From: Nageia nagi
Lineage: Eukaryota; Plantae; Pinophyta
Direction: 5' to 3'
NCBI GenBank assembly: GCA_050084985.1
Contig: JBITNC010000001.1
Coordinates: 26,474,001-26,538,000 of the forward strand
DNA length: 64,000 nucleotides
How positions within the stretch are numbered: position 1 is the stretch's first letter; each line of letters starts with the position of its first letter. This document shows positions 262 through 55,071 of the stretch, in pieces. The notes below the pieces were generated by a model. That model had not been told where the DNA came from and searched no databases. It was given only the letters and a program-made list of their open reading frames with translations. The position numbers were made by a program, and so were the translations under genes.

Positions 262-1099
262 CACCTTTTGAGTAGCGGTTGAGGTGAGTGTTTGTGTTGT
301 GAGGTTGCCCTACCCTGAGGCGTCTATAACATCTGCACCTTTGAATCCATCCGGTGGTATTCCGGAACTACATTCGATCTCTTTGTCGGTAGATAGCTTG
401 TGAGAGAGCCCTTCAGTGTGGCATCCACAGATTTGATAGTGTGGTTGTTCTACAGTGGTTTTAGCAACAATATTCATCCTTTCACAACTGTGTACCCTAG
501 TTGGCTCCTTGGAGGCCAACGTTGAGCTCTCTTGGGCTTGATATTTGTTGGTATGTTTTTCTTTCCTCATCTAAAACATGCACAAGACTTGGAGGAAACA
601 ACGTTACTTGTTTTCGCTTGAAAGGACTGGTTACTGCAAGCGCTCACATGGAATATGGACCCGAGTACAGTGGATAGAGATGCATGTTGTTAATCGTATA
701 CAAGAGAAATTCACCGTTGAAATTTTTTTCCACAAAGAGAAAAGATTGCAAGAGTGAATGAAAGCAAAGAAAGATCACAAATGCAAGGATAAATGGATAG
801 GAATATAGACATAAGCTTATGAGAGTGTCACAGTGATGTAGTGTCGTAGCTGGTCATCTTCAGATTCCTTAAGAAAAATGTATTCACTTATCAAACTTGG
901 AAGCAAATAACAAAGCTCAAGTTGCTACTAGACAAGCAAGAAGTTGTAGGGTTTGTTGTGCCTACACAACACCCCCCAATTTTTTTTTTGCATTTTGAGG
1001 ACTCTAAGGAAAACAAATAGGAAATTGCATGAAAGAAATTTGTCAAAGGGAATGCATATCTTTGGGACTAGTTTCGGGAACATGTTTAAACTGCATTGT

Positions 1100-2600
1100 C
1101 ATGGTAGTCAAGTCAAAATCATGCATTTTTAGGCCTATCGAATGTCTTTTAATGAGTCCTTTTACACCCCTCTCAAACCATGCGACCAACCTCTTCCTAC
1201 GTTTTTCATCTCTTGCATTTCATGTTTAAAGGCACCCTAAAGGACTCCATGTTGTAGGAATCCATTTGCATTTTATGTGCGTCATTTTTGGTCAAAAATG
1301 CAAAGGGAAAGGAGTCATTTTCAGCCTGTTGCATGTTTTGAGGGTGTGCTTTTGCACCCTCTAGAAAAGGTGCGACCAGGGTGAACATCTTCTCACACTT
1401 AGCATTTTTGTCGTTGCATTAAGTTGTCGCATGTTTTTTCATAAGAGTCCTTTTGCACCCTTTGGAAAAGGTGCGACCAAGGTGGAGATTTCTATACTTA
1501 GCATTTTCAAACTTGTTGCATGTTTTTGGATGAGTCCTTTTGCACTCACCAAAAACGGTGGGACCAGAGGAGATTTCATACTTAGCATTTTTTTTTGGAG
1601 CATTAAGGCTGTTGCATGCTATTAGGAGAGTTCTTTTGCACTCGTCCAAGAGGGTGCAACAAAGTGGAGAATACTTAGTCATTTTCTTGGGCATCAAAGC
1701 TTGTCGCATGCTTTTTGAGGTGTCCTTTTGCGCCCATCAGTGAAGGAAAATTGGCTAAGTGTTGGACTTTGTTTGTTGACAAGTGGAAACTCATGCACTT
1801 GGACCTCCTTCCAAACCTATCACGTGGTGACACTTGTCCCAGCCGGAGGGGCTATAAAAAGGAAGTCAACCCCTTTGTTTCAGTTTGCAAACCTGTCTGG
1901 GGCAGAGCGTGGGAGTAGAGAAGAAAAAGCATTCCTTCCAGGGTGTGCGACCAAGGACCACTTGTATTTTTTTGAAGTATCTTGAGATCTCAGGCGTTGG
2001 GAAGCGTGCCAGGACTCAAGCGCAAGGATTGAGACACATGCTTTTAGCACCCATTCAAAAGGGTGCGACCAAGGGTGAAACTTCAATTTCGTTTGGAATT
2101 TGGCTAAGTGCTTAAGGGCCCAATCGCATGCTTTTCATCACGTCCTTTTGCACCCTTCAAGAGACATGCACCCTTATTCTTGGTCCGCTATTTGACCACT
2201 AGATGAACCAATCGGAAGGTGACACTTGGCAAGTACATGAATCTATAAATACCCCCATCCCATGATCATTTCAATCACTTCATTTCAGAAATACCCTCTT
2301 CCCTAGTCCCGCCATTTCTCATGCATGCTTAGGCACTCATTCCAAAACGTGCGACAAAGAAGAAGGAAGGTTTTTGGGGAACATTACACATCTAGTTAGC
2401 CTTTTTGGCCAAGGCATTTCAGTCCAACCCTTGGAGCTAGTCGCATACTTTCAAAGATGTACTCAAAACACTCATCCTAAACCATGCGCCCAGATTTGAA
2501 GTGAAGAATTTTGTCTTGGAAATTGACTAATTGACCCTAGGCCCAGTCGCATGCTTTTCTAGCTATGCTTTTGCACTCATCCAAAACTGTGTTCCTAGAT
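1100..2600 (+). repeat. Degenerate ~85-100-bp repeat array upstream of the X ORF
   Basis: Recurrent unit GT(C/T)GCATG...TTTTGCACCC...GGTGCGACC, seen more than 10 times. Confidence 0.75.
2243..2252 (+). promoter_or_regulatory. Candidate TATA box for the X ORF
   Basis: CTATAAATAC ~400 bp upstream of ATG 2651, followed by TCATTTCA initiator-like sequence; a similar GGCTATAAAAA lies at ~1851. Confidence 0.5.
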
Positions 2601-2650
2601 TGGTCAGACATCAGGAGTTGAAAGGGGAAGGAGATAAGTGATATTCTTAC

Positions 2651-5600
2651 ATGGCTTCAAACATCAGAGCACCTCTATTGAGAGCCAGGAAGATTCAAAG
2701 TTAGTTGTTCGAAAGGCATGTGACCAAAAGCCAGATGACTCAGCTTTTGAAGGAAAGCCTGATTGAATTTCAGCAGAAAGAGAAACCAGAGCTCCCTGAA
2801 GCCAAATTCAAGGGGAGACATATCTTCATTGGTGACACAGATTGGGGAAACTTGGACCCTATCCTAAACGTAGCTTCCATGTCCTCCATCAGCAAAGAGG
2901 ACTTATTAGAAGAACTCATCGACACATGCGATTTGTTCAATGCTGCTATGATGCCATTTGCAATACCTTTTCTTGACCTATGCAGTGAAGTTGCTAGGAA
3001 GTGTGAATATGAGAAAAGGGTCTTGCAGGACAGAGAGGGCAACGTGATCATAGACTTTTACCCTGCTAGAGTTGAAGCAGCCTTTGGTTGAAAAAGATAT
3101 GGGGACGATTATACATTGGCTTATTCTGAGGAGTTCTATGATTCCACAGCCCGGCGTGGGGATTACATTCGACCCTGGTTGCTTGAAGAGTATCAAAACC
3201 TTCAAGGGCAGAGATTAATCAGGCATGGAGAGAGGAATTTTTGCCAGTTGTGGCAATATTGATCACTCTCATGTCGAGGTTGACTGGTCAAGAAAATGAT
3301 ATCAAATATAGAAGAGAGTTCACAGGTTTAAGTGCAGCTATCAGTTTGGGGAGACCTATTCGATGGGTTGGGGTAATCAATGATGCCCTGTGCTACCAGT
3401 TAGCCTATTTCGGTTCCTCGAAGAAGTTCTATATGAACTCTTATCTTGTGTACTTGTTGTTGCATGGTAAAGCCAGATCCAAGGAGTTAGCTGATGAAAG
3501 GTACTTGGGGCAAAACACCCTCGTGTGGAGAGCTTACCAAAAGTGGTGGTATCAGAACACGTTCCAGTATTTCTATGAGAGGACCAATTACTGGGAGTAT
3601 GACATCTACAAGGATATCAAAGGGGAGTCTGTTGTGAAGAAGATTTCTGATGCAGCTGCTCAAGCCATCAGTGTACATGCAGATTTCTTTTTGCAAGACG
3701 TTGGCTTTACATATATCAGAGTCTATGGCTCAGAAGAGAAACACCTGCTACAGCCGAGATATGCCAATGACAGGTTCATTCTCATGGAATTTGCCAAACA
3801 ACTCTTTATTCTTGAAGGAGAAGGTCTGGAAGAAGAAGAACACCACCTTAAATTTGCCTATTTCTATATCCAGATATGTGTGCCGGACGTGGGTTGAGGC
3901 AACACATATGAGGGAAGAGCTACAACAGTACAACTTCTTCAGGGAAGCTACTGCTAGGAACTATGATCCTAAGGGGATAATTGTACATTTCTATGACATG
4001 ACTTTCTACAAGCCCATTGTGTTTCCACATAAGTCTTTGGTAATCAAAGAGAAGTATAGGAACGTGCATGATAGAGGGGAAATTGCATGAATAGATGCTC
4101 TTTTGAGCAAGAAACCTTCAAAGACCTCGAACTACCAAGCCCCGATCTAAAGAGGTCCCTCTAAAGATCAAGTCTCTTTCTGCTGCTCACACAATGTCCT
4201 CACCAAGAAAGACACTCTTGCTTCCTGAAGGAAAAAGGCAAGAGGCCCCGAGGGAGCCCATCTTAGGTTCCAGCAAACACAGTGTAATAGAGGCTAATCT
4301 CAAAGACGTTGGTTATCATGCTTTTCCCGCAGATGTGCTGGATGATGTGGTGAATGCACCTTGTGCCATTGGTTCACTCACCAAGGCAATCTCTTCCAGA
4401 TCTGCTCATTCTCCTGGTTCCAGGGAGAAAGTTTCCCCTCTACAACCAAGTTCTAGCTCTAGCCCTAGCTCTGAACGCTCCTCTTTTTCTTCCGATGAAG
4501 AAACCGATGAAGATCCTGATCGTACAATGGAAGATTCTGGAAAAGAATCAGAAAGCCGTAGCGAGAGAGAAGAAGATGATATTGATAATGTTGCGAATAT
4601 GCCTGAGCAAGAGGATGTAGCTGTAGGTGCTTCAGCATGATGAGACGTAAATTGAAACCATCTTGGATGAAAAGATAGTGGATGTTGGTACCTATGATGA
4701 TGACGTCCAGATAGTTGGAGAAAAGTGCACTAGAGAGGTGGTTGCATCTAAATCCTTTCCTGCCAAACATAGGAAGAAGTCACCTTCTTCGCATAAATCC
4801 TCCTCCAAGAGGAGTCATGATAGATCTCCCCAGCTTCCGAATAAAGGATTATCTATAGGCGCTAATGGAGGAGATGAAGAAGACGAAGGAGAGACTAAAG
4901 AACAGAAAAAGAACAGGAGGCAGGAGGAGCATCAAGGCAAAGAAATGGCCGTAGTTCAAACCACTCTAGTGAAGGAGGTCAAGACAATCGATAAAGGAAG
5001 ATTGCTGGTTCAAAGGTTTCCCCCTCGGGCAGCAACTGAACATTTGGATCTTGATCTGGATGCTTGCCTTAGAGCCCTCAGCATGTGTATGGTTCATGAT
5101 GAAGGCATATACTAGGACTTACGTTCTGAAGATGTCGAGGAAGAACTTTCAGATGGGGAGAAGATTCATAGGGTGGACATTTTTTCCTCCACCTCTCAAA
5201 AAGAGATCTCCATTAGCCATTACGACTCTCAGGAGAAGCACCCTCAGAGAGCAGAGGACTATGTCATCGAGACATTCAAGATGCCTGTGAAACTAGGGTT
5301 GACAGCTAGAAAACGCATTGTTGCTCAGAATGCTGCAGTCATTGAGTAGGAAGGCTATGAAGCCAAAAAGGAGGTGAAGAGGTTGAAGAAGGAATTCACG
5401 GCTAGGAGGAAGATCATCAAGGAGTTCCTAAAAATTAGCACCACCCCTTTAGATCTGCAGAAGCAGACTTCCTTCCATGAAGGATGGAAACTGATGGAGT
5501 AGCTTAGGAACGAAGTGATGGAGGCCATCGAGAGATTGTCTTCACAGATTTACAAACTCTTTGCTGAAGGTGTTGAAATTAGGGATCTTAAGACACAACT

Positions 5601-6155
5601 TTCAGCACACCTTAGCTCGTTGGATAGTTATCTTCCCAACGTCTCCTATCTGGAGCACATATATGCCGACAACCCTGAGAAATTGGTCTATTGCCACGAG
5701 TTCACTTATCATCACGATTGGTTGAACCACACACTTGAGAAGTGCAACGCAGTCCTGAAAATCGGAATCCCCTTGAAAAAGGAGTTCGAGGAACAGATGA
5801 GTATCTTTATCAACTCAAGTTCCAAGGGGAGGATAACAACGTTAGGAAGGAGGAGGCGGTATTGGTAGAGGCCCAAAATCTGATTTAGGAGCATCTTGAA
5901 GTTAATGATCTCAACTTGTTGAAGGCAGGACATTCCATCGTCCATGAGAAGCAAATGGTCATCTAGAGATACCAGATGCAGGTTATGTCCAAGAAGATTG
6001 AAGGATACTTCTTGTAGAGTGGCAGTACTATTGGCATGATCTCAAGGGGCATGCAGAAGACTATGGCATTCCTGGAGGAGACCATTGAGTCCTACAGTCT
6101 CACTAGCAAGGAGTGGAACTCCGCCCATATCGAATCAGATCTGGCCTATGTCTGA
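2651..6155 (+). pseudogene. Decayed ~1,170-codon ORF of unknown function (retroelement accessory-ORF-like) in element X
   Basis: ORF-track fragments 2705-3091, 3241-3897, 3650-4090, 4194-4640, 4663-5115 and 5515-5868 link through stops and frameshifts. Motifs GDTDWGNLDPI and RWVGVINDALCYQL..KKFYMNSYLVYLLLH are shared with Y and W. End position approximate. Confidence 0.85.
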
Positions 6156-6502
6156 TTCACTATGTCAGACTTTATTTCATCTGATTTGGTTGGTGTAGGG
6201 ATGAGATTTTGCTCCCGCCAAATCAAATCTGTCAGACTCATTTATGGCTTTGATCGGTGCAGGGATGAGGTTTTTCTCCCGCCGGTTTAGATGTCAGACT
6301 TTTCAGAATATTTATTGCATATCTGATTTACTGTTTCATAGATTAGATATAGATTAGATGCGTTTTGATGGTGGCATTTATATTTTGTCAGCTTTAAGTG
6401 CCACTTGCATAGTTTTTTGCGATCTGATTTTGTATTGATATGTGTGTTGTGTGTGTGTGCATCATATCAGATTTGATGCCTTTAGGGTAGTACTTCTAGT
6501 GG

Positions 6503-6513
6503 CCTATTTATAC
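6503..6513 (+). promoter_or_regulatory. Candidate LTR (U3/R) TATA box downstream of the ORF in X
   Basis: CCTATTTATAC ~960 bp before the 3' terminus; the same motif is conserved in Y at ~8052-8064; an equivalent CTCTATAAGTAAG (rev. comp.) is in W at ~40991-41003. Confidence 0.45.
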
Positions 6514-8467
6514 CCCACTCGAGCCATTTAGAAGAGGATTTTGACATGAGTGATTTTTGATATGAGGAATTTATGCATAGGATCTTGACACAATTTTGCA
6601 TGGGACTTCTGCACTTAATAAAAGCATCATATATTGGAGTTCTTGCATCTTTGAGATCCTGGCTATGGGTTTATGTATGTAATCATTTTGTGCCTTTGCA
6701 TATTATAATACTCATATTCCATTGCATAGAGGTTTGCTGCATAAGGGGTTCTATGCATGTATCTTTGTTGAAAATCATTATGAATGTGTCTATCTAGAGG
6801 AATGAAATCTTAAAGTTTATACTATGAGGAATATCATTTGTGGGATTATGCATATTTGAATGATTCTTTCTTTGAGCTGCATATTGAATATTCATGTGAA
6901 AGAGTTTGATCCTTCTTTGCATAGTTTGCATGTAAGAGGATATATTCTGAGGCTTACAACTTGTCTTTATATCATTCGGTTAGGTTATTGCACTCATGCC
7001 CTTATTTCACCTATACTCCCTCCATTAGTCTTCCACAAAGACCCTACAGCTCCTTGCTCTTGTTTGGTAGTGTTTTGAGCATATTTGCTATTTGCTGCCC
7101 AACTTGATAGTGAGTGCATCAACCTTAATAAATTTGAAGATGACCTGCTGAGACTCTGTATCCCTGGTGATATCTTCATAAGTCTTTTCCTTTGCTCGCA
7201 TTTCCTTGCATCTATCCCTGTGTTTGTCCTTGCATTTGTGATTTTTCTTCGCTTTCATTCACATTTGCATTCTTTCCTCATTTGTGGAAAGGATCTTCGG
7301 TGTGTATTTCCCTTGTATACGGTTAACAACATGCATCTTTGATTGCTGAGCCATCAAGACCATATTCCATGTGAGTGCTTGGGGTAACCAATCTTTTCTG
7401 GTGGAAACAAGTAATGCTGTTTCCTCCAAGTCTTGTGCATGTTTTGGGCAAGGAAAGAAAAACGTACCAACAGGGTCTATGATGGAAGACTCGATGGGAA
7501 TGAGATGAAGGGAAATGACCATGTGAATACATAAATTCTAGCTGAAGGACATAGAGATAAGTTGTAAGCCACATAATACATTCACTTATGTGCAAACCAT
7601 GCAATGAACAATTTAAATCACTTCAACAAATATTCAACTTTCTTCTCTTAAAACTTGCAGTTTTCAAAAAGAATGCACTTAAGCAGTAAAAACTATTCAA
7701 GCTGGTAAGAAACTCTTACAAAAATAAGATGCATGGTTCCACGAATGACAAACTTCGCAGCATTTGCTTTATAAAACCATTCCAGAAAGAAACAAACTTG
7801 CAAATATACTCAATAATATGAATATGAGCATTCCTTTCTTGATTGCAAAAGAACTCTGAATATGATATTTCAAAATGAATTAGAGATACAACAACAATAT
7901 GGCAGAAATCGTCTATGTAACCACAGTATGCAACAATCGACCATATGCAAAAGTGCCTCCATGCAATAATGATATGCAAAAATGTGTATGGCAAAAGTCC
8001 TCAATGCAATTACCAATATGCAACAATCCTGTTCTAAATGGCCTGAGTGGGGTATAAATAGGCCACTAGAAGTGTTGTCCTAAAGGCTTCAAATCTAATA
8101 CGATGTGCTCACATGCAACACACATACCAATGCAAAATTTGATTGTTTTATAAATAACTATGCAAGTGGTATTTAAAGGTTGACAAAACATAAATGCCAC
8201 TATCCAAAAATGTGTAATCTACCTCTAATCCATGCAAAAATAATTTAGAAATGCTATAAATGTCTAACATCTGAACTGTTAGGAGCAAAACCTCATCCTT
8301 GCACCGATCAGATTCATAAATGAGTCTGACAAATTTGATCTAGTGGGAGCAAAAACTCATCCCTACCCCAATCAAATCAAGTAAATGAAGTCTGAACATA
8401 ATCAAAACCACCAACAATATGCATTTAACAATTGAAAAGACTGTTACAGACAAAATCTGCAAGTGGA

Positions 8468-11400
8468 TCAAATCTAGGCCAAATTTGATTCGGCACCTAT
8501 GGAGTTCCACTTTTTGTTGGTGAGATCGTATGACTCTATGGAAATCATACCCCCAATGTTGTTTTTCTGCCTCGATCTGCTTAGACATAGCCTGCATCTG
8601 AAATTTCTAGATGACCATCTAACTCTCGTGATGAATGGGTCTGCCTGCCTTCAATAGGTTGAGATCCTTGACCTCAAGATGCTTCTAAATTAGGTTTTCT
8701 GCTTCTTCCAAGATTGCTTCTTTTCTTTGCATGTTGTTATCTTCCCCTTGGAATTTTAATTGATAAACATATTGATTCATTTGTTCTTCCACTTCCTTTC
8801 TCAAGGGTATTCTTATTTTCAATACTATATGGCACTTGTCCAGTGCATGCTTCAGCCAGTCATGCTAATACATAAACTCATGGCAGAAGACCAATTTTTT
8901 AGGTTTGTTAGCGATGATTTGCTGCAAGTGGGTGATGGTGAGGAGATAACCATCAAGCTTCTCGAGGAGGGATGTTATTTGGGATTTCAACTCCCTAATC
9001 TCAACGCCTTCATAAGGAGGCGATAAACTTGAGAAGCTATGGTTTCCATCATCTGCTTCTTCAAAACATCTTTCATTAATTCCCACCCCACATGGAATGA
9101 AGTTTAAATTCTATAGGAGTAGTACTTATAGTTTGGAATTCCTTTATGATTTTCCTATTGGCTGTGAGTTCCTTTTTGAATCTTCTCACCTCCTTCTTGG
9201 CTTCATAGCCTTCTTGTTCCATGACAACAACATTCTAAGTGACTGTGTTTTTTGGCTGACAGACCTAATTTTGCAAGCATCTTGATAGTCTCAATCATGA
9301 AATCTTCAGGTCTTTGGGATTCTTCTCCTTGGAGTAACAATGGCTAATGGAAATCTCCTTCCTAGAAGTAGAGACAAAGGTATCTACTCTCCTAACTTTT
9401 TCACCATCAGAGAGCTCCTTTTCTTCGTCCTCAAACCTTAGATCTTGATCAATGTCTTCATCATGAGCTGTGCTCATTCTCAAAGCTCTTAGGTAGGCAT
9501 CCAAGTCAAGTTTGGATGTTCGATGGATGGCTTGGGGGAAACCTCTGTACTAGCACTCTTTTTTTATTTTTCTTCTTGACTTCTTTTGTTGGAGTGGATT
9601 GAATGAGGGAAACCTCCTTAACTTGGTGCTCTTCCTGCTTCCTCTTCTTCTTCTGCTCTTCAATCTTATCTTCATCATCCTCATCTCCACCACCACCTCC
9701 TAAAGATATGACTTTTCTACGTGGTTGAGGGGATTTCTCATGGCTGGTTCTTTTCACTAAAGGCGGGGACGACTTCTTCCTATGTTCTGCAGGAGAGGGT
9801 TTGGAAGAAGGTACTTGCTTAGCATATCTCACTCCAACAATATGGACGTCTTCATCACATGTCTCAACATCAATAAACAAATCATCTTCATCAACCGGGA
9901 GAGTATCAATCTCCGTATGATCAAGTGCAGAAGCACCTACAACTACATTCTCTTGATCAGGGTAATCATCATGGGGATCGAGCTCAACATCTTTATCGTC
10001 ATCACCATCATCCTCTTCGTCTTCTTCTTCTTCTTCTTCACCACGACTCTCTTCTTCTTCTCCTTGCCTCTTTGTTTCTTCTTTTGAACCTTCTTTAGCA
10101 TAGCCGGGTTCTTCATCATCTTCTTCATTGGAAGAAGAGGTAGAGGAGTGTTCGGAAGAATTGGAACTTGGTTGCAATGGGGGAACTTTCTCTCTGCATC
10201 CAGGAAGATGAGAGGATCTCTGTGGAGTCTTCCTGATAGGGGATCACTAGCACAAGCATTCTCCAAGGGACATCATGGTAGCCAACATCCCTAGGATCAG
10301 CCACTTGTTGGCCTATCTCTGTTGTGTTGGCAACTACACTACATTTACTTGATTTCATTGAAGCATATTGCCCCAAGGTACCTTGTCTTTTCCCAATGGG
10401 AAGTAAGGATTACTTGACTTGTGGAGGTGCATTGCTAGGAGGAGGAGGTGTCTTGATCCTAAGTAGGACCTCTTTAGGTCGTTCTTTCACAGTTCTAGGT
10501 CTTTGAGGTGTCTTCTTCTCTGTTTGAAAAGGGGCCTTGTTTCTTCACAGAAGAACATCTATCTTTGCTATTTCCCCTTCATTATGCACATTCCTGTATT
10601 TCTCTACATTCCCCAAAGACTTATGCTTATACACTACAGGTTTCTGGAATGCAGTGTTAAAGAAAAGGGAAATAACATCTCTAGGATCATAATTTCTTAC
10701 TGCTGCCTCCTTGTAGAAAACATATTGCTGCAACTCCTTGATACTTTTGGCCTCAACCCAAGTCTGGAAAACATAACTCATAATGGAAATAGGAAAGTTA
10801 ATTGTAGCATCTTTCTTTCTCTATACTCGCTCCTTCAAGAACAACAATTGCCTGGCAAACTCCATGAGGACTAGCCTATTGCTAGAAGATTTGGGCAAGA
10901 GTAGAGGCTACTCTTTGGAGCCATAGACTCTGATGTAAGTGTGGTCAGTGTCGAAAACAAATCGGGCAGTTGAATGAATTCGCTTGGCAATTAGGCAGTT
11001 CCAGTTGAATGCATTTCGGATGCTTTCGAAGAGAAGTTGACTAGCTCTTCTAATGGCTAGATCCAAACCTGGATACAGGGCGGAACTGCAAGTAGAAATT
11101 TGCATGTACACTAATGGCTTGGATGGCTGCATTAGAAATCCTCTTCACCATTGACTCACTTTTGATCTCCTTGTGAATGGCATACTCCCACTCATCATTC
11201 CTCTTGTAGTAATGCCTAAACTTGTTGTGATACCACCACTTAGGGTAAACATTCAACAATGGGATGCCTTTCTTACCCAACTTTCTCTCATTTGCATGCT
11301 CCTTGGATTTGCATTTACCATGTAACAATAGATACACTAAGTAAGAGTTCATATAAAACGTCCTGGAAGAGCCAAAGTAAACTAGCTGGTGGCACAAGGC

Positions 11401-12132
11401 ATCACTGATCACCCTACTCCATCGTATGGCTCTCCCTGAATTGATCATTGCTATGAAACTGATGAACTCTTTCCTATACTTAGTGTCATTCTCCTAGCCT
11501 GTGACTCTGGACAACAAGGTGATCAACTTAAATACTTTTGGGAGGAACTCCTCCCTACAGGCACTAACCAATCTCTAGCTTTGGATACCCTGATAATCTT
11601 CATAAAACCAACATTTGATATAATCCCCAGGTTAGGCAGTAGTATCATGGAACTCCTCTAATTGGGCCAAATTGTAATCATCTCCATATCTTCTCCAATC
11701 AAAAGCAGCTTCAATCCCTTCTAGAGAGAAGTCCATGATCACGTTTCCTTCCGTGTCCAAGAAACCTCTCTTATCATATTTGCAGTGTTTGGATACTTCA
11801 TAGCACAAGTCAGGAGAAGGAACAACAAAAGGCATCATAGTGGCAATGAATAATCCACAAGAGTGGATAATCTCATCTGTAAATCTTCTTCTTTAATAGA
11901 AGCAGTGGATGCTATAGTCTGGATGGGATCAACATTTCCCCAATCTGTATCTCCAACAAAAGTGAATCTCCCCTTGAATTTGGCTTCAAGGAGCTCTAGT
12001 TTTTCTCTTTCTTGAAACTCAATCTGGCTTTCTCTCATAATTCTCTCCATACGATCTTCTGTGATGTCTCTCAAAGAGTTGCTTTTGAATTTTTTTGGAT
12101 TTGGATGGGATGGGCTTTGCCCTAGAACTCAT
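8468..12132 (-). pseudogene. Decayed ~1,220-codon homologue of the X ORF in element Y
   Basis: Begins MSSRAKPIPSKSKKIQKQLFERH; fragments with GDTDWGNVDPI, RWSRVISDALCHQL..FYMNSYLVYLLLH, an acidic S/E-rich middle and C-terminal GVEIRELKSQ...LVFCHEF, all colinear with X. Confidence 0.85.
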
Positions 12133-15593: not shown

Positions 15594-15701
15594 GTTGCTT
15601 TCCATGCTGTGAGAAAGTTTGATGGTAAATCATTTAGACAGTTACTTCCTGGTGAATACACGCAAATGGCTGGGCGAGCAGGTCGGCGTGGGCTAGATGA
15701 G
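15594..15701 (+). CDS. SKI2: SKI2-like DExH-box RNA helicase, internal exon (helicase motif VI region)
   Basis: CAG| acceptor, |GTTGGT donor; 108 bp translating [36 protein letters not shown], which contains the Ski2-family [10 protein letters not shown] motif VI. Not in the ORF track. Confidence 0.95.
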
Positions 15702-15908: not shown

Positions 15909-16058
15909 GTTGGTATTGTCATTCTAATTTGTTGGGAGGAAATACCAGAAGAGAGTGATTTGAAATGCTTAATTACTGGAAAACCAACAAAGCTCGAGTC
16001 CCAGTTCCGTTTAACCTACAGCATGATTTTAAACTTACTTCGTGTGGAAGACCTAAAG
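15909..16058 (+). CDS. SKI2: SKI2-like helicase, internal exon
   Basis: AG/GT bounded, phase 0/0, 150 bp: [64 protein letters not shown] is characteristic of SKI2 rather than MTR4/HEN2. Confidence 0.95.
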
Positions 16059-19273: not shown

Positions 19274-19275
19274 AG

Positions 19276-42800: not shown

Positions 42801-42927
42801 AGAGATCAGGCCTACTCTTCTGAGGTCCAGGATTTCATTTCTCGTACTTGTGATAGTTGTTTCAATGGTTTGTCCAGGGATGCTATTGGTAGCATACTGC
42901 CCGTTCTATCCTTGAGCCAGGGTTACT

Positions 42928-45900
42928 TGTAATGTTCCAAAAATAAATATTTTGTAAATGTCTCCTACGCTTAATTATAAAAGTGGAAAAGGGGTTCATG
43001 TGACTAGGAGACATAACTTAAGTTGTGTTTATTTATGTTTTATATTTTTATTTTTTTGTAATAAGGTACTTTAAGTGATTTTAGGGTTAGGAGATGTCAA
43101 CTCCAAATTAGAACCTCATTCTATAAAAGGAAGTGAGCATCTCATTTGGAGGATGTTATGTGATATGAGAATTGAATATTGAAACCCTAGAGTTTCCATG
43201 AGTTGAGATTGCAGGTCTTGCTCATTCCCATAGTGCATTGGAGGTGCATGGTTGGGGACTTGGCAATATCATTGAAGGTGTTATTGCCCTAAAATATAAA
43301 AAATACAAAAAGAGGCATCTGTGAGTGGTTCGTGGCATTTCTTTTGGGGAGGGATTCACTCAGTTTGAAAAGTTTGTATCTGCATTTTTAGTTTCGTGAG
43401 GATTCCATTTGTCCATTCCAACTTTGTATTGGTTTGGAAATATTTAATATATATGATACTGGCTGATTTCTCCTCATACTAGTGTTATTTTATGAGCAAT
43501 TTCTGAGTTATTTTATTGCTGCAATTTATTTTTGCATTTTTATATTGAGGGTTTGCTAGAAATAAAGAAATAAAAATAAAAGGAACATCACAAGTGGTAT
43601 CAGAGCTTGGATCTTGCCAGCTTGTGGTTAGATCTAACATTTTTCAAAGATTTGGAGAGTTTTTGTAGAAAATTCAGATTTTCAGTTTCCAGCATCTGGG
43701 TATTGAAGAAATTTGGGTGATCTGCATTTTAAAAGCAATTTTCAGAGTCAAAAAGGCATTTTTTTTAAGAAATCTGCATTCCTAGACTAAGTCGTCTAGG
43801 TTTGGGAGAAAAAATTTGCAGGATTGAAAGCTATTTTCAAGCCCAAAAAGTCTTGATCTATTATTCTAGCCAGAAAAAAGTCTTGAGAATTCAAGGCAGA
43901 ATTGGAGTTGTGTTTTCTTTGAATTAGGGTTTTCAGAAAAATTAGGGATTTCAGAAATTTTTTGTGGGTATTTCAGATTCATGTTAAAAAGTGCTTTTCT
44001 ATGGTGAAAATTTATGCCCTGGTGAAAATTGCGGATTTTTAGGGGATTCGCGGATTTTTAGGGATGTGTATTAGAAAATAAAAATTGCAGATTTGGATAC
44101 CCTTTTGGCCAAATTGAAGATTTGTGGCTTCAGAAAAAATTTGGTGGTAAGAATTTTTCAGTATTTCAAAATTCCATTCTTTTGAAGGTTTGATAGGGTT
44201 TTATGCATCGTCCCCCTATTCATCAGTATTTTACTAGGAAAAACAAACTTGCTTTGGAAATGGCAAACAAGGCAGAGGATGAGGAGCCCCAAAGGCCAGT
44301 TGATAGGACTGAGCAAAAGTTCGATGCCCTACTTAACATGATGCAAAGAATGGTGTCCTTACAAGAGACAAATCAGCAAGAATTGAGGGCAGCTTTGGGC
44401 AAGCCAAATGGCACAAGGAGGGAAGGAGAAAGGGGGAAAAACAACAATGGGCATGAGTCATCATCTAATTCACATACTCCCTTGCCTAGGCCATCCAAGC
44501 CTATGTTTCTTGCTCCACCACCTTCACCAGAGGAAGATGAGGTAACTGATGAATTAGATGAATGGTTTGCTGCTTATAGTAATAAATCTGAAGGTTTTAG
44601 GGCAGCAGTTTCTTTTGATAAATATTTGAAGATTGTGGGTAAATCTGTTGTTGAGGCTAAAAAAGAGAAAAAGAAACCCTTATTGCATCAAAAGGTGACC
44701 ATTCCCTCATTTAATGGTCAAGATGGTCTCACAGCTAAGGCATGGCTTCAAAAATTGCAAACTTATTTTACCTTGGAGCCTATTTCTGAAGCTGATGCAG
44801 TTCAGATTGCTACACTTCACCTTGAGGGTAGTGCTTACTTATGGTGGCATCATGGGTTAGTAACCCAAGGGCACAGTGATATTGATATATTTGATGAGTT
44901 TTGTGTTAGGGTTTTGAACAGGTTTGAAAGATGGAATGTGGAAGAGTATTTTAAGGAGCTTGCCACTTTGAAGCAAACTTCATCCATTCATGCCTATGTG
45001 GAGGAGTTTGAGCAACTTTTAGTTCAGGTCCAAAACATATCACCCAAGAGGGTAATTTTTCTTTTTATGGATGGTTTATTGGAACCTTTGAAAGGGCTAG
45101 TTAAGGCTTTTGAGCCAGTTACTCTTGATGATGCCATTAAGAGGGCTTTGAACTTGGAATCTGTTTTACCTCCTAGGCAGAAATATGTTGCACATAACAC
45201 ATCTGTTAGACCACATTTTGCAGCTAGGAAAACAGGTTTTGGACTGCAGTATGGACAATCAGGAAATCTCACGCAGCAAGGTGGAAATGAAAGGAATTTT
45301 TATGGCAAGAATCCCATGCATAGAGAGGGTTTCAGATCTGGTTTTCAGCCATCTAATAAGCCTCCAAATGGACCACGCTTGACACAAGAAGAGAAATATG
45401 AGCTAAGGAAACAAAACAAGTGTTTCATTTGCAAGTCTCCTTGGCAAAGAGGTCATAAATGTAGAGAAGGAGGTATGAAAATCATTGAATTACATTCTGA
45501 TTCTGATTCTGATAATTCTGATTTTTATGAGGCAGATGAGACACCTTTGGAAGAGGAAGCACAAAGGGAGTATGACGAAGTTCCTGAAGGTTCCCTAGCC
45601 ACTTTGAGTGGGTTGAATGAGTTTCGCACTATTAAAGTACCAGGTAGATCTTTTGATGAGAAGGTTATTGTTTTAATAGATGGTGGTGCTACTTACAATT
45701 TTGTTGATGAGAAGTTTGCCACTAGAAAGAATCTTCCTACAACTATCATTCCTGGTTTTAGTGTTGCTATTGGCAATGGTGATCTTATCACTTGCAACAA
45801 AGTGGTAAGAAACATAAAAATTAATTTTGGCAACATGGAAGTAGATGAGCAATTCTTTGTTTTTCCCTTAGGAGGCATTCCACATATGGTTTTGGGTGTG

Positions 45901-48900
45901 CAATGGTTATATTCACTTGGTGATTATGTTACTAATTATCAAAAATTAGAACTGAAATTTGTGCTTGAAGAGAAAGAAGTGGTGTTGCAAGGAATAAAGG
46001 AAAATGGGCCAAAAGATTCTTGCAAAATTTTGGATGTCTCTTGCAAAAGAATGGAGAGATTGATGAGGCATAGAGACATTGAATGGGCAGCTGTAATTTT
46101 TAGCACAGAAGGGAAAAAATCAACCACCTATCATCCTCAAATTCAAGGTTTGCTACAAAAACATCTTAAGGTATTTTCTGACCTACCTAAAGGTTTGCCA
46201 CCTAGTAGAGGTTTTCAACATGTTATTGAATTGGAAGCAAATAGTAAACCTGTTATAATAAAACCTTATAGGCATCCAAAGGTTTTTAAAGATAAGATTG
46301 AGAAAACAATTGCTGAATTGCTTGAGAGTGGACACATTAGACCTAGTTGTAGTCCTTTTGCCTCACCTATTGTTTTAGTGAAAAAGAAAGATGGAACTAT
46401 GAGAATGTGCTTTGATTATAGGGCATTGAATAAAAAAACCATAAAAAATAGATATCCTATTCCTAGAGTTGATGAATTGATAGATGAGTTACATGGGGCT
46501 AAGTATTTTTCAAAAATTGATCTTAGATCAAGATATCATCAGATTCGTATGAAGGATGAGGATGTGTATAAAACAGCATTTAGATGCTATTGTGGACACT
46601 ATGAGTTTATGGTTATGCCTTTTGGATTGACTAATGCACCTGCCACTTTTCAATCAACCATGAATCAAATTTTCAGTCAGCATTTGAGGCGCTTTGTCTT
46701 GGTATTTTTTGATGATATTTTGGTATATAGCAAAAATTGGGATGATCATTTACAACATTTAGATTCAGTTTTGAGCATTTTAGGACAGCAAGAGTTTTAT
46801 GCAAAAGAATCTAAGTGTGAATTTGCTATGACTGAAATTTTGTACTTGGGGCATATTATTTGCAAAGATGGGGTGAAAGTTGATCAAGCTAAAGTTTCAG
46901 CTGTACAAAGATGGCATATAGCATCCAACCTAACAGAATTGAGAGGTTTTGTGGGATTATGTAGTTACTACAGGAGGTTCATTAAGGGGTTTTCATCTTT
47001 GGCTGCTCCCCTTACTGAATTGACTAAGAAAGGGGCTTTTTCATGGTCCAATGAGGCTCTTCTAAGTTTTCTAAAGTTGAAGGATGTAATGACTTCCACT
47101 CCTTTACTTGCTATTCCTAATTTTTCTGTTGCTTTTACTATTGCTTGTGATGCTTCAGATGCTGGAGTTAGAGCTGTACTTATGCAACAAGGACGCCTCA
47201 TTGCCTATGAGAGTAGAAAGCTCTCAAATGTGGAGAAAACTTTCAGCATCTATGATAAAGAGATGCTAGCTATCATGCATGCCTTGACCAAATTCAAGCA
47301 ATACTTGGTGTGTGGCAAGTTTGTGGTCAAAATTGATCATAACAGTTTGAAATACTTCTTGGGACAAGCTGACCTAAATGAAAGACAACAAAAATGGGTA
47401 ACAAAGTTGCAATCATATGATTTTGAAATTGAATTTGTAAAGGGTAAGAAGAATTCAGCAGCTGATGCACTTTCTAGGCACCCTACTTTTCATTCTTTTT
47501 CCATTATTTCTGCTGATTGGAAAGTAAAAATTATGGCTGAATATGCGAAGCATGATTTTTTCTCTAAACTAATAAATGGGCAAGTTGAAGATGATAGGTT
47601 CAGCCATAAAGAAGACTGATTTTCTGCAAGGGAAGAGTGTTTTTAGTACCTGAATCAAAGTTGAAACAAACTTTAATGACAGCCATGCATAATGCTCCAC
47701 TTGTAGGCCATCCAGGTTTCTACAAGACTTACAAACAGGTTAGAGAAAGATTCTATTGGAAGGGTTTGAAAAGAGATGTTTTCTTGCATGTTCAGGAATG
47801 TGTTATTTGCCAAGAAAATAAGGGAGAACATGAATTTTCAGCTAGTTTACTTCAGCCACTTCCTATTCCCAATCAGAAATGGGAAAGTATCTCCATGGAT
47901 TTCATTACTGGTTTGCCCAAGGTATACATGAAGGATTGCATATTCGTTGTTGTTGATAGATTGACAAAATTTGCTCATTTCTATGCCATTTCAGCAACTT
48001 ATACAGCCATACAAGTTGCTGATTTGTTTTTTAAAGAAGTTTTTAGATTGCATGGTTTGCCTAGATCCATTGTGAGTGATAGGGACAAAAGATTTTTGAG
48101 CATGTTTTGGCAAGAATTGTTTAAGCTATGTGGTACTAAATTGACTCCTAGTACTAGCTACCATCCCAAACTGATGGGCAAACTGAAATTGTTAACAAAT
48201 GGCTTGAAGGGTATTTGAGAAATTATGTTTCAAGTCAGCAAAGTGCATGGGTTAAATGGCTGCACCTTGGTGAATACTGCTACAATTCTACTTATCATAT
48301 GTCCATAAAAATGTCTCCATTCAAGGCATTTTATGGTTATGATGCACCACACTTTTCAGATTGATTTTTGGTGATTCAAAGGTCCAAAAAGCTAGAGACT
48401 TTGCAGCAGAAAATCAAGCTATTCTTAATGCTTTGAAGGATAATATTCTTATGGCACAAAATCAGCAAAAGAAGTATGCAGATCAACAACGTAGTCAGCG
48501 CTCATTTGAGGTGGGTGACTTGGTTTATGTTAGGTTGCAGCCCTACAAACAGTCCACATTGAAGAAGAGTGGAGCAGAGAAGGTAAAACCCAAGTTCTAT
48601 GGGCCTTACAAGGTGATTAGTAAGGTTGGACAGGTTGCATATGCTTTGGAACTTCCAAGTGAGAGTAAGATACACAATGTTTTTCATGTTTCTTGCTTGA
48701 AAAAGGCTTTAGGCCAACATGTTCAGCCATCTTCAGATTTGCCACCTCTTGATGATGAAGGAAAGCTCATTCTTGAACCTGAATTGATCCTTGAGACAAG
48801 GGAGAAAAAGCTTAGGAGTAGGACTATCAAAGAATATCTTGTGAAGTGGAAGAACTTGCCTGTGGAGGATGCTACTTGGGAAGGTGCAAAAATTTTAGAT

Positions 48901-49615
48901 GATCCAACTTTGACTTTGCTTGAGGACAAGCAATTTGAGGAGGGTGGACTTGTAATGTTCCAAAAATAAATATTTTGTAAATGTCTCCTACACTTAATTA
49001 TAAAAGTGGAAAAGGGGTTCATGTGACTAGAAGACATAACTTAAGTTGTGTTTATTTATGTTTTATATTTTTATTTTTTTGTAATAAGGTACTTTAAGTG
49101 ATTTTAGGGTTAGGAGATGTCAACTCCAAATTAGAACCTCATTCTATAAAAGGAAGTGAGCATCTCATTTGGAGGATGTTATGTGATATGCGAATTGAAT
49201 ATTGAAACCCTAGAGTTTCCATGAGTTGAGATTGCATGTCTTGCTCATTCCCATAGTGCATTGGAGGTGCATGGTTGGGGACTTGGCAATATCATTGAAG
49301 GTGTTATTGCCCTAAAATATAAAAAATACAAAAAGAGGCATCTGTGAGTGGTTCGTGGCATTTCTTTTTAGGAGGGATTCACTCAGTTTGGAAAGTTTGT
49401 ATCTGCATTTTTAGTTTCGTGAGGATTCCATTTGTCCATTCTAGCTTTGTATTGGTTTGGAAATATTTAATATATATGATACTGGCTGATTTCTCCTCAT
49501 ACTAGTGTTATTTTATGAGCAATTTCTGAGTTATTTTATTGCTGCAATTTATTTTTGCATTTTTATATTGAGGGTTTGCTAGAAATAAAGAAATAAAAAT
49601 AAAACGAACATCACA
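42928..49615 (+). mobile_element. Near-intact Gypsy chromovirus G2 (IFG/Reina-like)
   Basis: 665-bp LTRs at 42928-43592 and 48951-49615 (~10 differences); PBS 43595-43606, PPT; TSD TTACT/TTACA. Confidence 0.97.
44203..48969 (+). pseudogene. G2 gag-pol polyprotein (gag-PR-RT-RH-IN-chromodomain) with frameshifts after 47619
   Basis: 1138-aa ORF with CFICKSPWQRGHKC, LIDGGATYNF, FFDDIL and ACDAS. Downstream fragments carry integrase (SMDFITGLP, SDRD, GPY) and chromodomain (EYLVKWKNLPVEDATWE); the stop lies inside the 3' LTR. Confidence 0.95.
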
Positions 49616-52099
49616 TTACAGAAGAGGATATTATGGGAATAACATACCCGTGGCTTGGGGATATGGTGACCCATGCATTGGCTCTTAACTTGGCAGCTTC
49701 TTCGGATTCATGCTGTTTTTGTTCTTTTTTCAGCTCCTTGTGAATCCGTTGAACTTGCAGGGCATCCTAAATGTTCATGTACCTCTCGATGCTACCAAGG
49801 GATTGGTGTGGATATGATGAGCTCCAACTCTTTTGGAAGAATGCATCAATCATTCCAATGGAATCATAGTGATCTGCAACTACTTCTATCGGGAATTCAT
49901 AAAACGCCAGTTCTTGTTTGATCATTTCAATCTGTCGCCAGGTGCTGCATTCATAATTCTTGATGAGAATAGGTAATTGGTAAGTGGTCGCCGCCTTCTT
50001 TACCCATACCTTATTGTATACGTTTAGCAAGTGTCTTGAAAATTCTATAAGGATGATACGATCACTTGCATAACGGGGTAGCCTGTAAGGGGCTTCTTTG
50101 GAGCCATAGACCTTTAGGTAGGTGAACTGTTATGTCTTCTGCAAAGAAGTCTACATGTCCCTTGATAGTGGCTAAAGCCTCTTTGGATATTCTGAATACG
50201 TTGGCTCTACCTAGGATCTCTTCGTAAATTTGGCCTTCAATACCATCGGTCATCATCGTTCAGTTTCCAGTATTCCATTTATTATGAGCACAGATCCAGG
50301 GGTAATTTTCCCACACTAGATGTGTAGGGTTGTATAGATATTGGGTATTGGCAATTGAAGTTACCCTCTCCCTAACATGAAGGAGTAGGAAAACTAGGTA
50401 GGAGCTCATATAGAATTTCTTGCTCTTCTGAATGTGTTTCAGGTGCTGAGCCAAGGAATCACTAATTACTCTGCTCCACCTAACACCTTTGCCGCTACTG
50501 ATTAGCACTATAAACCCTGCAAATTTCGGCTGGAATTTGGTGTCATCTTTTTGTCCATCACTCTGGAAAACATGGATATTAGTCTGGAAACTACTAGATA
50601 GAACTCTCCTCTGTTTGGCATTGCTAAGGCTCTCCTTGTGAGATGCTTGTGATCATCGGCCAACCAATCTTTGATCAAATCAGCTAGAGGTTGTAGACCT
50701 TTGTAGAACTTCAAGGAGTCTTGCATGCTGTATGATAGGCCTTCACCCTTCCAAGCGAATTCCTTTTCTATTCCTTCCTTGCAGAAGTCCATGATTACCT
50801 CATTTCCTCTATCAAGGAGTCTCCACTCTTGGATGTTGCAATGCTATCCTAGCTCGTAGCACAACTTAGGGAAGGGGGTGGCACGTGACACCATAGAAGC
50901 TGATACTAGTAAGGAAGTTTTCAAGGTGTCCTTCACTATCGAAGCTGGATCCAATGTATGTATTTTCATTAGAGTTTTAATTGGATTGAGGGAGTTACAG
51001 TCTGTATCTCCGATCTCACTTAGTTGGTCAATGATTCTTGCGGTGGGCATCATGGGCTCTGACGTATGTTCAAGAGTGATGGGACTATCCATCGTGAGCC
51101 TTTTTTGCTTCCTGTCTTTGATATTCTGAGCAACTAATGCCATCTTGTTCCTGTCTAAGAGAACAACATAGTGTTAGAGGAGTCTTGGGAAGCTTGTGGC
51201 ACTTTCTAGGCAAGCTAAGAGAATTTTTCAAAAAATTGGGATTTTGGGCATTTTTTTCTCTAAGTGTACCATCATCGAAAAATGTCAAGGTTTGCAATTT
51301 TCAAATTCTTTTGGATGAGTTTAAGATGACATAAAGGTAGCTGCCTCAAAGGGGAATGCCTTGGCAAAAAAATAGGAGGATTGGAGAATTTCCAAGTTTT
51401 TCTCAAAAAAGTTGACTTTTTCAACAGGAAATAGTGGTGAAATTTGGCAAAATTGGCAAATGGTGCCGGAATCAAGTTCTAACACCTTAGATGGATGGGG
51501 AATGAATGGGGAAGGTGTTTCAGACTTTGAAATGGCTAAAACAGGTTTCAGAAACAATTTTTGGAGTTTTCTAAAAAAAATTTGGATTTTTTTAATTTTT
51601 TTTCAAGAAATGAGATTTTGAGCACTAAGATTTTGGATTTGATGATTTTTTTGTGTTTTTTTAACTGAAAATAAAAGTTGATTACATGGATAAAGGGTAT
51701 CCGAAAAAGTGATCAAATTTGGAATCTGAAAAAATAAATTTTCAAGTGTTTTGAGTGTTTGAAAAAAACGTTTTTGTGAAAAATCCTCAAAACTTGGAAA
51801 AAATGTAGTTCATATGGATGGAGGATGCTTGGATTTTGAATTTTAATGGAGTTTGGGTAAATTGCCAAGATACTAAGTGTTTGAAAAATCTTCAAAGGCT
51901 GGAAAAATGGCTTCTTTTCTCACTTGACTCTCAAATTCTCAAAAATTTGGTTAGCATAAGGGTGCAAAAATGAGAGGTGAGCAAAATGGAGGGGGTATGG
52001 TCATATTTATAGAGCTAGAGGGGTTAAAAGTGCCACATGTCACTTCCACATCAACCATAGAGCTCAACACTTGCACTTTGGACTATTCCCTCTCAAACC

Positions 52100-54500
52100 C
52101 AACATTGGAAATCATGAGAAAACTTGGAAAAAATTCAAAACCTGCACCTAGATGGGGAAGGAGCAGATTTGGTGCAATGGGGGAGGTCTTGGAAGCAAAG
52201 ATGATGGCCTTGGAATGCTCTACAACCTCCATGCTTCAGATTTGGATTTTGAATTTTGAGATTTTTTGAAAGAAGATCAATTTTTTTTTTGAGTTTTCTC
52301 AGCCTTTATATCCTTTTTGGATGAAAAAGGTGGTTTTTAGGAGTTTGTGTAAGCCAAATTGCACAACTGATAAGTCAAAATGGTGTAGAATCACACCACC
52401 TACCTCATAGAAGTGAAAAATTGAAATTTTGGGCACTTTTAGGGCCAAGGAGGGTAGGTGCAGGTTTTAGGATGTTTAGGCAAGTTTTGAAAAATGAAAA
52501 AATGGGGGATAACTTGCAAAACCAGCGCCTACCTTTTAGGGCGGCAAAAATTAGTTTTTGAGCAAATTTGCAAGAGGCAAAGATGCTTGCATTTGGATTT
52601 TGAACCCTACCTTTCTTTCTTATTTTGTTTTTGAGATATTTGTTTTTGAAAATTTTGGAAAATTTTGTAGCTCTCCCATTGGCTGATCCAAATTTTGGGT
52701 TTTTGAGGGAGTAGTTCAACTTTTTTCCAAAAACTTGAAACATGAAAGAGATGCAAAATTGGATTTCCCATGCTCCTAGGATCAATTTTTTTTTATTTTT
52801 GAGCAAAAATGAGGGCTTGCAAGCTAGGCGCAAGTTTAGGGGCTTTGGCATGTTTTTGGAAATTTAAAAAATGGGGGAAACAAGACAAAACTGCCGCCTA
52901 GCTTTTTGAGGGGGTAAACTTGATTTTTTTGCAACATTGCAAGAGGCAATGTTGATCTCCTTTGGATTTTGCACCCTACCTCACTTTCCTTTTTCGATTT
53001 GACCAGTTTTGGAAACTTTTGAGAAAATTTGGAGCCCTCTCATTGGTCAATTGAAATTTGATGATTTGAGGAGGTAGATTTCTTTTTGTTGAAAAACTAA
53101 AATCATCAATCTTATGTGAAATCCCATCCTATGCCCCTTGAAGGTCAAAATTTCCAATTTTTTTCACTTTTGGGGCACAAGAAGGGTAGGTGCAGGTTTT
53201 GAGGTGTTTGGGTGTTTTGAAGATTTTGAAAAATGAGGGAAAACACCCAAAACCAGTGCCTAGCTCTAGGAGGGTCAAAATTTGCCTAATTTCGAAAATT
53301 CCAAGAGGAAAGGTGCCTAATTTTTTATTTGCCACCCTACCCTACTCTCAAATTTTCATTTTGACACTTTTGGAATTTTGGAAATCTTGGAACATTCTCA
53401 TTGGCTGCCCTTTTGCTCATATACCTGTTTTTCTCACTTTCGATGGAGCAAAACGATTCGAAATCACGAACTTGAAAGACCAATTTGATGTAGAATTGTG
53501 ATCCCTTGCTTCTGAGCTCAAAAATTGCCATTTCTGATCAATCTGGGCCTCCCAAAAGTTAGGTGCAGGTTTTGAAGAGATTAGGCCATTTTTCGAAATT
53601 TACTAAGTGAGGGAAAACTTGCAAAACTTGGCCCTAACTTTTCGGGGGTCAAAATCAAGTTTTTTTGAAATTTTGAAGAGTAGAGTGGCCTTAATTTGTC
53701 ATTTGGCACCACACCTCTCTCTCGAATTTTCATTTCGAGCATTTTGTAAAAAACTCAATTTTCGGGCTCAGACCAAAGCTTTTTGGAGGCCAAAACGCTC
53801 ATTTCTTGATCCTGGCCCACAAGGGTGCTCAAACTTGTTTTCCTTGTTCATCCCGGGCTATACTGTACATTCTTGACCTTCTCTGTCTTTTACAGGCCCC
53901 AACGGTGCATTTCCAGCCCTTTTTTGGCATTTCTGGGCTCTAAGCATGAATTTCAACCATTTCTAGCTTTTTTGGACATTTTTGAGCTCAAACAGTGAAA
54001 AAACAATCATTTCCGGCGTTTCTAGCATTTCAAGCTCAAAATCTACATTTCTGGCCTTTCCGAACTCAAGATATGCACAAATGCTCATTTTCGATTTTTT
54101 CGGGCATTTCCAAGCACTTTGAGCTCAAACTTGCATTTTTGGTCATTTTTGAGCTTTTCGGGCCCAAACTATGCTAAAAACGCACATTTTCACTATATTG
54201 ACCAAGGTCGAACTCAAAATTGACTAGAACGTGCTTTTCGGTGCTGTAGACCATCTTCTGGGTCTTCGAGCTCAAAATTGAAAAAAAATGCACTTTTATG
54301 TGCTGTTGACCATTTTCTAGCTCTTTAGGCTCAAAATTGACAAAAACTGCTTATTGGATGTAGATGCCCTTTCCAGGTTCAATTTGTGCAAAAATGCGCA
54401 TTTTCATCATCTTAACTGTATCCATTGATCCCAGGGCTCAAACTTGATGGAAAACGCACCTTTTGTCATCTTGACACCTTTGTTGCTCAAAATTGCCAAC
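52100..54500 (-). repeat. Degenerate repeat arrays upstream of the W ORF
   Basis: Roughly 370-bp blocks with TAGGTGCAGGTTTT, GC(G)CCTA and CATTGG motifs (52430-53650), and short GCTCAAA-cored units (53880-54500). Confidence 0.65.
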
Positions 54501-55071
54501 ATGATGCCTTTTCCGCCTTGGAGGTCATTCACTCAAAACTCCATTGTGTGGTTGTTGTCGTAATCCACAACTCCGTCCTCTGAGACATGGCTGAGCTGAA
54601 TTGTTTCCATGACTCCGGGGCATGCTTGTCTGCTACTTTGATCATCTAGCCGTTCTGAGTCTCTATACCGGCGTAGTAAGTTGATCATGCCCAGGCAATG
54701 TTGCTCATTGTCGTTTGAAAACATTGGGTCCCCAAAATGCTGCATCTTGGGTTGTGTTGTGCAAACACAACAGTTTGAAGTCTCCAAAATCTGAATGAGC
54801 TTCTCTTCTTGCAATTTTGAAATGATGCTCAAGGATTGCGAACTTGCTTTCCAATTTTGTGTGCTTCTTTCTCCCACCTCAACGTCTTCTTTTATAGGGT
54901 CCTTTAAAATTTTCGAATTGATATTTTCCCTCCAAATTTCCAGGCGACTTATTCCTCAAATAAAATAATTTTTCCGAAATAAAATATTCTCTTCTCTCTT
55001 AATTAATTCCAAAAAATTTCGAATTGATTATAATAAGGAAATAAGGAAAATTGGAATCATAAGGAGATACT

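Follow-up and report, generated by a model that had tools for sequence, protein, structure and literature searches.

Gene-Carrying TG..CA Units in Nageia nagi as Candidate Solo Long Terminal Repeats of a Giant Retrotransposon

Three Large Insertions With a Common Layout

The stretch analyzed here (the window, 64,000 nt of Nageia nagi DNA, whose numbering is used for all coordinates of the units) contains three large units, X, Y, and W, that share one layout: a 5' hairpin, motif arrays with a TATA box, a large gene, a second TATA motif, about 1 kb of further sequence, and a CCAACA end (Table 1). An earlier reading of this DNA, hereafter the original prediction, described them as TG..CA insertions with 5-bp target site duplications (TSDs) of their own, and coordinates, ends, and TSDs are as claimed; the layout is likewise confirmed, with arrays of 1.7, 2.2, and 3.6 kb in X, Y, and W, respectively, and TATA motifs at the proposed places. 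X is nested in the 3' kilobase of Y in the opposite orientation, and Y itself sits within another repeat. The termini read TGTTG..CAACA in all three complete units and at all nine further intact ends, and the terminal inverted repeat is only 5 bp long. X and Y can be aligned over most of their length at 61-69% identity, and W only patchwise at 58-63%.

In contigs of four public read sets, which represent relatives rather than the copy studied here (5-15% of words), all 30 bins of window positions 1-14600 are covered in 4/4 runs. The empty sites of both X and Y also occur in these contigs, the former as joints from 928/933 to 7473/7502 and the latter as loose ends at 527, which identifies both units as true insertions.

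The original prediction also held that the units lack gag, pol, and paired long terminal repeats (LTRs), and this is borne out: no direct repeat joins both ends of X, Y, or W, and the gypsy and copia proteins of the window itself have no match in them (tblastn, E<0.01). No primer binding site (PBS) is present at the borders of the three units, and neither Pfam searches of the window frames and of protein homologs nor tblastn with the window's gypsy and copia proteins found a transposase or integrase. Large retrotransposon derivatives and terminal-repeat retrotransposons in miniature are recognized by two LTRs, a PBS, and a polypurine tract (PPT); paired repeats and a PBS are absent from every unit here.

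Table 1. Coordinates and properties of the family copies and associated features.
Feature	Position	Strand	Remarks
Unit X	954..7472	+	6519 bp; TSD GGGTT/GGGTC (4/5)
Unit Y	546..14326	-	7257 bp without X; TSD ATATT/ATATT (5/5)
Unit W	39973..54772	-	~8.1 kb (about 8100 bp) without nested gypsy G2; TSD GTTTG/GTTTG (5/5)
X 5' end	954..1003	+	18-bp hairpin and second inverted repeat
Y 5'-end hairpins	14277..14326	-	
W 5'-end hairpins	54723..54772	-	
X motif arrays	1004..2650	+	degenerate, tandem; TATA at 1852, 2243; same-strand 8-mers, 4-6 copies each
Y motif arrays	12130..14276	-	TATA at 12997, 12310
W motif arrays	51144..54722	-	TATA at 52313, 52012
X broken gene	2705..6197	+	ends approximate
Y broken gene	8343..12128	-	homologous to X gene, 65-70% in DNA; ends approximate
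W broken gene	41131..51143	-	split by gypsy G2
X second TATA	6504..6512	+	969 nt from 3' end; AATAAA 113 nt downstream; likely U3/R region
Y second TATA	8053..8061	-	
W second TATA	40993..41001	-	1029 nt from 3' end
X 3'-terminal motif	7379..7472	+	7-bp covarying stem, 8-nt loop (7403-7424), purine run, CCAACA end
Y 3'-terminal motif	546..639	-	conserved
W 3'-terminal motif	39973..40100	-	conserved
Z, partial fourth copy	1..251	+	Y/X-like 3' region; truncated by window edge and, at about 252, by another repeat
T, partial fifth copy	17875..18400	-	3' end, TATA, terminal motif; L005-like; upper bound approximate
V copies without ORF	L002:764-3004; L002:13740-16323; L003:1-1687		about 2.2-2.6 kb
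V copy with ORF	end at L002:18220		
SKI2-like helicase gene exons	15594-15701, 15910-16059, 16853-16973, 58962-59113	+	approximate
Gypsy G2	42928..49615	+	ordinary two-LTR element nested in W, outside the family; TSD TTACT/TTACA

Conserved 3' Ends

The last kilobase of the units carries conserved motifs placed as in the R-U5 part of an LTR. The distance from the second TATA motif to the 3' end is 914-1030 nt in 7/7 copies whose last kilobase is uninterrupted (and less in three cut or deleted copies), and a poly(A)-like hexamer follows 54-132 nt behind the motif in five of these seven. A motif of about 100 nt is common to the 3' ends of family copies. It contains a small stem in which 6/7 pairs have changed on both sides and 85.7% of cells are paired; none of 500 shuffles reached its covariation score and slid controls scored lower, with the structure read from the same 10 sequences and W fitting with a register shift. 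When whole ends are folded, the z-scores are mostly weak (between -2.1 and +2.1 across six 3' ends), and only the small stem covaries. Rfam at gathering thresholds gave no match in the window or in four metagenome loci of the family. The easiest account of selection on this 3' tail is that the tail once formed the leader of genomic transcripts, a point in favor of reading the units as LTRs. The TG..CA ends also fit the LTR att consensus, which is described together with the U3-R-U5 order in the relevant part of PMC3601003.

Separately, the last 45-60 nt (window 7420-7472 and homologous ends) show a fold-back in which CCAACA pairs with an internal TTGG in W and in metagenome locus L005, and more weakly in other copies.

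A Decayed Gene Once Under Selection

Where the original prediction described one open reading frame (ORF) of about 1,100-1,200 codons in each unit, no copy is open. The gene spans about 1,100-1,260 codons per unit, and the longest stop-free stretches are 236 (X), 245 (Y), and 265 (W) codons; all three are pseudogenes. In in-frame blocks compared between copies, dN/dS is 0.15-0.30 in six of seven pairs, the seventh being saturated, and the gene was therefore functional under purifying selection while the subfamilies diverged.

The X gene codes for a folded N-terminal part of about 480 aa (VANC/PMD-like as judged from models of homologs), an acidic low-complexity middle, and a helical C-terminal part. 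With a window fragment as query we found an intact homolog, P0001 (758 aa, 47%), which in turn retrieved 186 homolog clusters (at 50% identity), none of them with a useful name. More distant homologs (P0018, P0070, P0107, and P0148) share 20-26% identity, reach 1010 aa, and have a long coiled-coil C-terminus. Together with the number of clusters, these distant homologs mark the protein family as old and diverse. Pfam found nothing above its cut-off in 11 window frames.

A fold could be proposed from AlphaFold models of P0001 (136-row alignment) and of P0018, which is 23% identical. Both models contain a confident domain of about 450 residues; in P0001 a long helix and a disordered part come after it. 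When they were compared with 48,161 representative PDB chains using VIA, the first match of each was the DNA complex of VANC21 (9lnk), a DNA-binding anti-silencing protein, at Z 7.3 (rmsd 4.7, 240 aligned) for P0001, with only coiled-coil matches below it (5.4), and at Z 7.8 (rmsd 4.6, 235 aligned) for P0018, where it was the only match with Z>=5 and the next reached 2.6. VANC shares structural homology with MAIN, a PMD protein (PMC13547354), and the models point to a VANC/PMD-like fold, a prediction of moderate strength. Several results weigh against it. The match has a Z under 8 and 6-8% identity; Foldseek placed VANC21 second for the P0018 model at a non-significant E of 1.8 (TM 0.25/0.32), did not list it for P0001, and gave no match at E<=0.001 in its PDB and viral sets; Atlas returned no usable match for P0018. 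Among 136 homologs Pfam gave scattered weak matches only, with PMD in 0/136 and no DUF1985, and a profile search of PDB sequences gave no match.

Hairpins and Motif Arrays at the 5' End

An 18-bp hairpin and a second inverted repeat are common to six 5' ends, those of X, Y, and W and of three copies of a further subfamily, V. In the window the hairpin pattern, which was derived from X, Y, and W themselves, occurs only at these three sites (six strand matches versus 0.04 expected, with 0/100 shuffles reaching six). A G-run beside the 5' hairpin was considered as a PPT in front of an 18-bp mini-LTR and rejected: in W and V it is an arm of the inverted repeat, and it is not repeated at the other end.

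Between hairpin and gene lie subfamily-specific 8-mers, present in 3-6 copies versus 0-0.5 expected, many of them on one strand only. This recalls VANC21, which according to the part of PMC5735166 that treats its binding recognizes short motifs arrayed in one orientation inside tandem repeats. VANC anti-silencing proteins bind arrayed motifs and lower DNA methylation. Features in common with the VANC system of the Arabidopsis VANDAL elements, which are Mutator-like elements (MULEs), are the fold match to VANC21, a conserved domain with a variable low-complexity region and coiled coil, and subfamily-specific short motifs on one strand of degenerate tandem repeats. Unlike VANDAL elements, the units have no transposase and have LTR-type ends with a 5-bp TSD, and identity in the fold match is 6-8%. 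The arrays fit the role of candidate targets of the VANC-like protein without proving it, as repeats alone would give the same pattern.

Distribution and Derivatives of the Family

The original prediction was right in counting three insertions and overlooked two partial copies in the window, Z and T; the 3' end of T at 17875 was recovered at E 6e-5 with a profile built without T, and its 5' part was not found. A scan of metagenomes yielded seven family loci among 170 candidates, of which L002 and L007 are Y-like, L003 and L004 W-like, and L001, L005, and L006 more distant. These loci also hold the fourth subfamily, V, of which one copy bears the ORF and three lack it (Table 1). The ORF-less copies have the 5' hairpins, motif arrays of their own, the second TATA, and the 3' region, and one of them, V1, can be recognized as a deletion form because it retains the last ~20 codons of the gene. 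Extra copies in the window, metagenome loci, ORF-less derivatives, and cover in 4/4 read sets show that the family is large.

Y-type copies have received X (949-958/7473-7481) and the ORF-less V2 (L002:16324-16335) at the same site, to within about 4 bp, in their 3' kilobase. Each of the two insertions lies antisense to its Y-type host, and all three V copies lie inside family members; the shared site of X and V2 is possibly a hot spot or a case of self-targeting.

Outside these sources, three protein profiles and two end patterns found no relative in IMG/VR, where a pattern combining an LTR end with a PBS matched 91 stretches, none with a family end, the gene, or reverse transcriptase (RT). 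A protein search of GTDB found no relative, and its sole pattern match (L008) was rejected as a chance match inside a bacterial gene.

Origin of the Units

Taking these features together, we consider it somewhat better than an even chance (a probability of roughly 0.55) that the units are solo LTRs left by a giant Ty3 retrotransposon of Tat type with its accessory gene inside U3. A Tat-type element would have moved its accessory cassette of arrays, promoter, and gene into U3, for instance if the plus strand came to start farther upstream. The parent would consist of two 6.5-8-kb repeats around PBS-gag-pol-PPT, measure 20 kb or more, and insert with a 5-bp TSD. Genomic RNA would start at the second TATA, making the last kilobase R-U5, while the first TATA would drive the gene, whose RNA would end at the same poly(A) site, in R. 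The protein with the predicted VANC/PMD fold may bind the adjoining arrays, a predicted interaction, and lower silencing of the family; acting in trans, it could allow ORF-less copies to spread as well. Recombination between repeats of ~7 kb would leave mostly solo copies with the cassette kept.

Retroviruses offer a known case of a U3-encoded gene, sag of mouse mammary tumor virus (MMTV), with whose arrangement the units would agree if their gene lay in U3 and had its own transcript; in contrast to MMTV, a plant element would here carry about 3.5 kb of coding sequence together with a promoter and arrays of its own. Among plant elements the Tat clade (gymnosperm TatII/TatIII and Ogre) is closest, sharing the 5-bp TSD, tandem arrays, and a large accessory ORF with a predicted PMD-like fold and a helical C-terminus. 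Ogre also has very long LTRs, given as 1.9-6.5 kb in the section of PMC6431247 dealing with them, and recombination is reported to be more frequent for longer LTRs (PMC7251063). ORFs encoding PMD and coiled-coil proteins are described as Tat cargo, first in gymnosperm lineage III (sections of PMC4408406; supplement of PMC6317226). The original prediction, which overlooked the decay of the gene and the ORF-less derivatives, also overlooked this predicted fold, a cargo type known from the internal region of Tat elements.

Several observations count against solo LTRs. The parent was not seen: two direct copies around PBS-gag-pol-PPT, the arrangement by which the original prediction proposed to recognize giant coding LTRs, were not found, as no gag-pol is linked to any copy and neither a PBS nor a PPT adjoins any of nine independent intact ends (six at 3', three at 5'), nor any of the six discovery ends. 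The count of nine leaves out the damaged 3' end of V2, which is also host-flanked, and copies cut by contig ends or insertions. By our own arithmetic, 0/9 has a probability of about 0.004 at the rate of Picea abies, with one solo LTR per 5.6 complete elements (PMC5751070, where given), and of about 0.12 at that of Cupressus, with 2.8 solo LTRs per intact element (bioRxiv 10.64898/2026.07.23.736688, where given). Read contigs leaving the Y 3' end (four rows of 6-15 contigs each) and the X 5' end (two rows of six each) agree in their flanks at 0.42-0.49 in 6/6 rows, as for unrelated flanks or a minor shared fraction, and not at the 0.57-0.60 of a simulated 45% shared flank. Paired LTRs still flank four other elements in the window. 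Arrays and extra ORFs (eORFs) normally lie in the internal region, as in Retand (PMC11963269, in the part concerned), and REXdb, in section 9 and the supplement of PMC6317226, gives eORFs in 5' or 3' internal positions only. Known Tat eORFs lie 5' of gag or between pol and the 3' LTR (antisense in TatIII), in contrast to the gene here, which lies within a single TSD-flanked unit without paired repeats (3/3 complete units), likely in LTR sense, with no Pfam PMD match and no gag-pol seen. Lastly, in X, Y, and V the second TATA conforms better to a TATA box when read from the other strand, so that the orientation of the units rests on the forms in W, L005, and T; the LTR orientation is likely as proposed.

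Assembly of reads collapses shared flanks, which makes the flank comparison a weak test that leaves room for a parent. Standard scans, as far as their settings are described, limit LTR length to 6 kb (PMC6317226) or LTR spacing to 15 kb (PMC13477047), elsewhere 15-20 kb, and would therefore miss a two-LTR parent. Complete elements make up a minority share of the family at most, and the data do not decide between the readings.

The original prediction named a second possibility, that the TG..CA unit itself is mobile, and the two were the right pair to weigh; solo LTRs have since gained from the conserved TATA, poly(A)-like, and hairpin end, with the parent not found. Such a unit would have no two-LTR parent, would use a borrowed LTR-type integrase, perhaps with RT primed from terminal fold-backs, and would encode only an anti-silencing factor, an explanation that we regard as possible and clearly less probable. 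The external position of 15/15 intact ends, the lack of a shared flank in the read sets, and the conserved fold-backs at both ends speak for it, as do the ORF-less derivatives, which keep both end regions like non-autonomous elements (V1 being a deletion form). Against it, no known route copies a unit with internal promoters without a repeat, the terminal inverted repeat measures only 5 bp, and an outward promoter 1 kb from the 3' end would have no role there, yet is a defining LTR feature; moreover, two 7-kb repeats would tend to be missed in metagenome contigs, which are short, and in read contigs, which are collapsed. Spelled out, this would be a new high-copy class of plant element, an enzyme-less 6.5-8-kb TG..CA unit with hairpins at both ends and a borrowed integrase, whose sole gene is a VANC-fold anti-silencing factor for its own arrays and which has ORF-less satellites; we put this forward only tentatively.

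An origin of the units as deletion or recombination products of ordinary Tat or Athila elements, with gene and arrays representing a 3' internal region still attached to an LTR, is unlikely. It would agree with the known anatomy between pol and the 3' LTR in Retand, TatII/III, and Ogre, where arrays and an eORF occur. Subfamilies only 58-65% alike in DNA nevertheless keep the same two ends and layout, each complete unit has its own TSD, the motif of the 5' end is found a single time in every unit, and no PPT-TG junction is present between gene and second TATA, which in W are separated by only about 130 bp counted from the stop codon. The original prediction had named derivation from short-LTR elements by deletion as the case that would overturn it, and the conservation of ends and layout across diverged subfamilies makes that case look improbable.

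Non-autonomous Ginger or VANDAL/MULE DNA transposons retaining just the VANC-like gene would account for the VANC-like fold and motif arrays, which are VANDAL features, and for the Ginger-like ends, yet they are very improbable given that no transposase or integrase was found, that 40-270-bp terminal inverted repeats (TIRs) are missing, and that the TSD is 5 bp long versus the about 9 bp made by MULEs. Ginger transposons, in the description available in PMC2836005, are single units with TGT..ACA ends, a 4-5-bp TSD, and TIRs of 40-270 bp; the units here are like them in ends, TSD, and unit structure and unlike them in lacking an integrase-like transposase and long TIRs.

Implications for Plant Repeat Annotation

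Solo LTRs with a gene in U3 and self-mobile units alike would be an architecture that we did not find in print: no plant LTR holding an internal gene appeared in the literature searched, including the relevant parts of PMC11539532 and PMC13468544, the sequences of Repbase, Dfam, and REXdb lying outside that search. If the units are LTRs, a plant LTR with a whole 3.5-kb gene exceeds the LTR size limits of standard annotation, the repeats classed as "unknown" in giant genomes may conceal an abundant family, and estimates of solo LTRs would be biased. A gene in U3 would, moreover, outlive solo-LTR formation and keep acting in trans. The VANC21 fold match, moderate as it is, suggests what the accessory ORFs of Tat-type elements, long without an explanation, may do: sequence-specific anti-silencing is a candidate function. 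Such anti-silencing has so far been shown for a DNA transposon family, and here candidate target motifs adjoin the gene.

Host Gene and Neighboring Elements

X, Y, and W lie in introns of a SKI2-like helicase gene, for one exon of which human SKI2 is the best PDB match (E 3e-12). T, W, and several nested retroelements lie in one of these introns, which is 42 kb long and recalls gymnosperm genes with giant introns. Gypsy element G1, at about 18712-26617, is 93-98% like G2 internally, has a 5' LTR unlike its 3' LTR and a 1.5-kb insert in gag, and is likely a recombinant. A decayed copia element occupies 33988-39890 (+). Two young two-LTR elements without RT, with LTRs 99% alike, lie at 55072-57763 (-) and 59824-63348 (+), and the latter retains a 535-codon gag-protease fused to an integrase tail.

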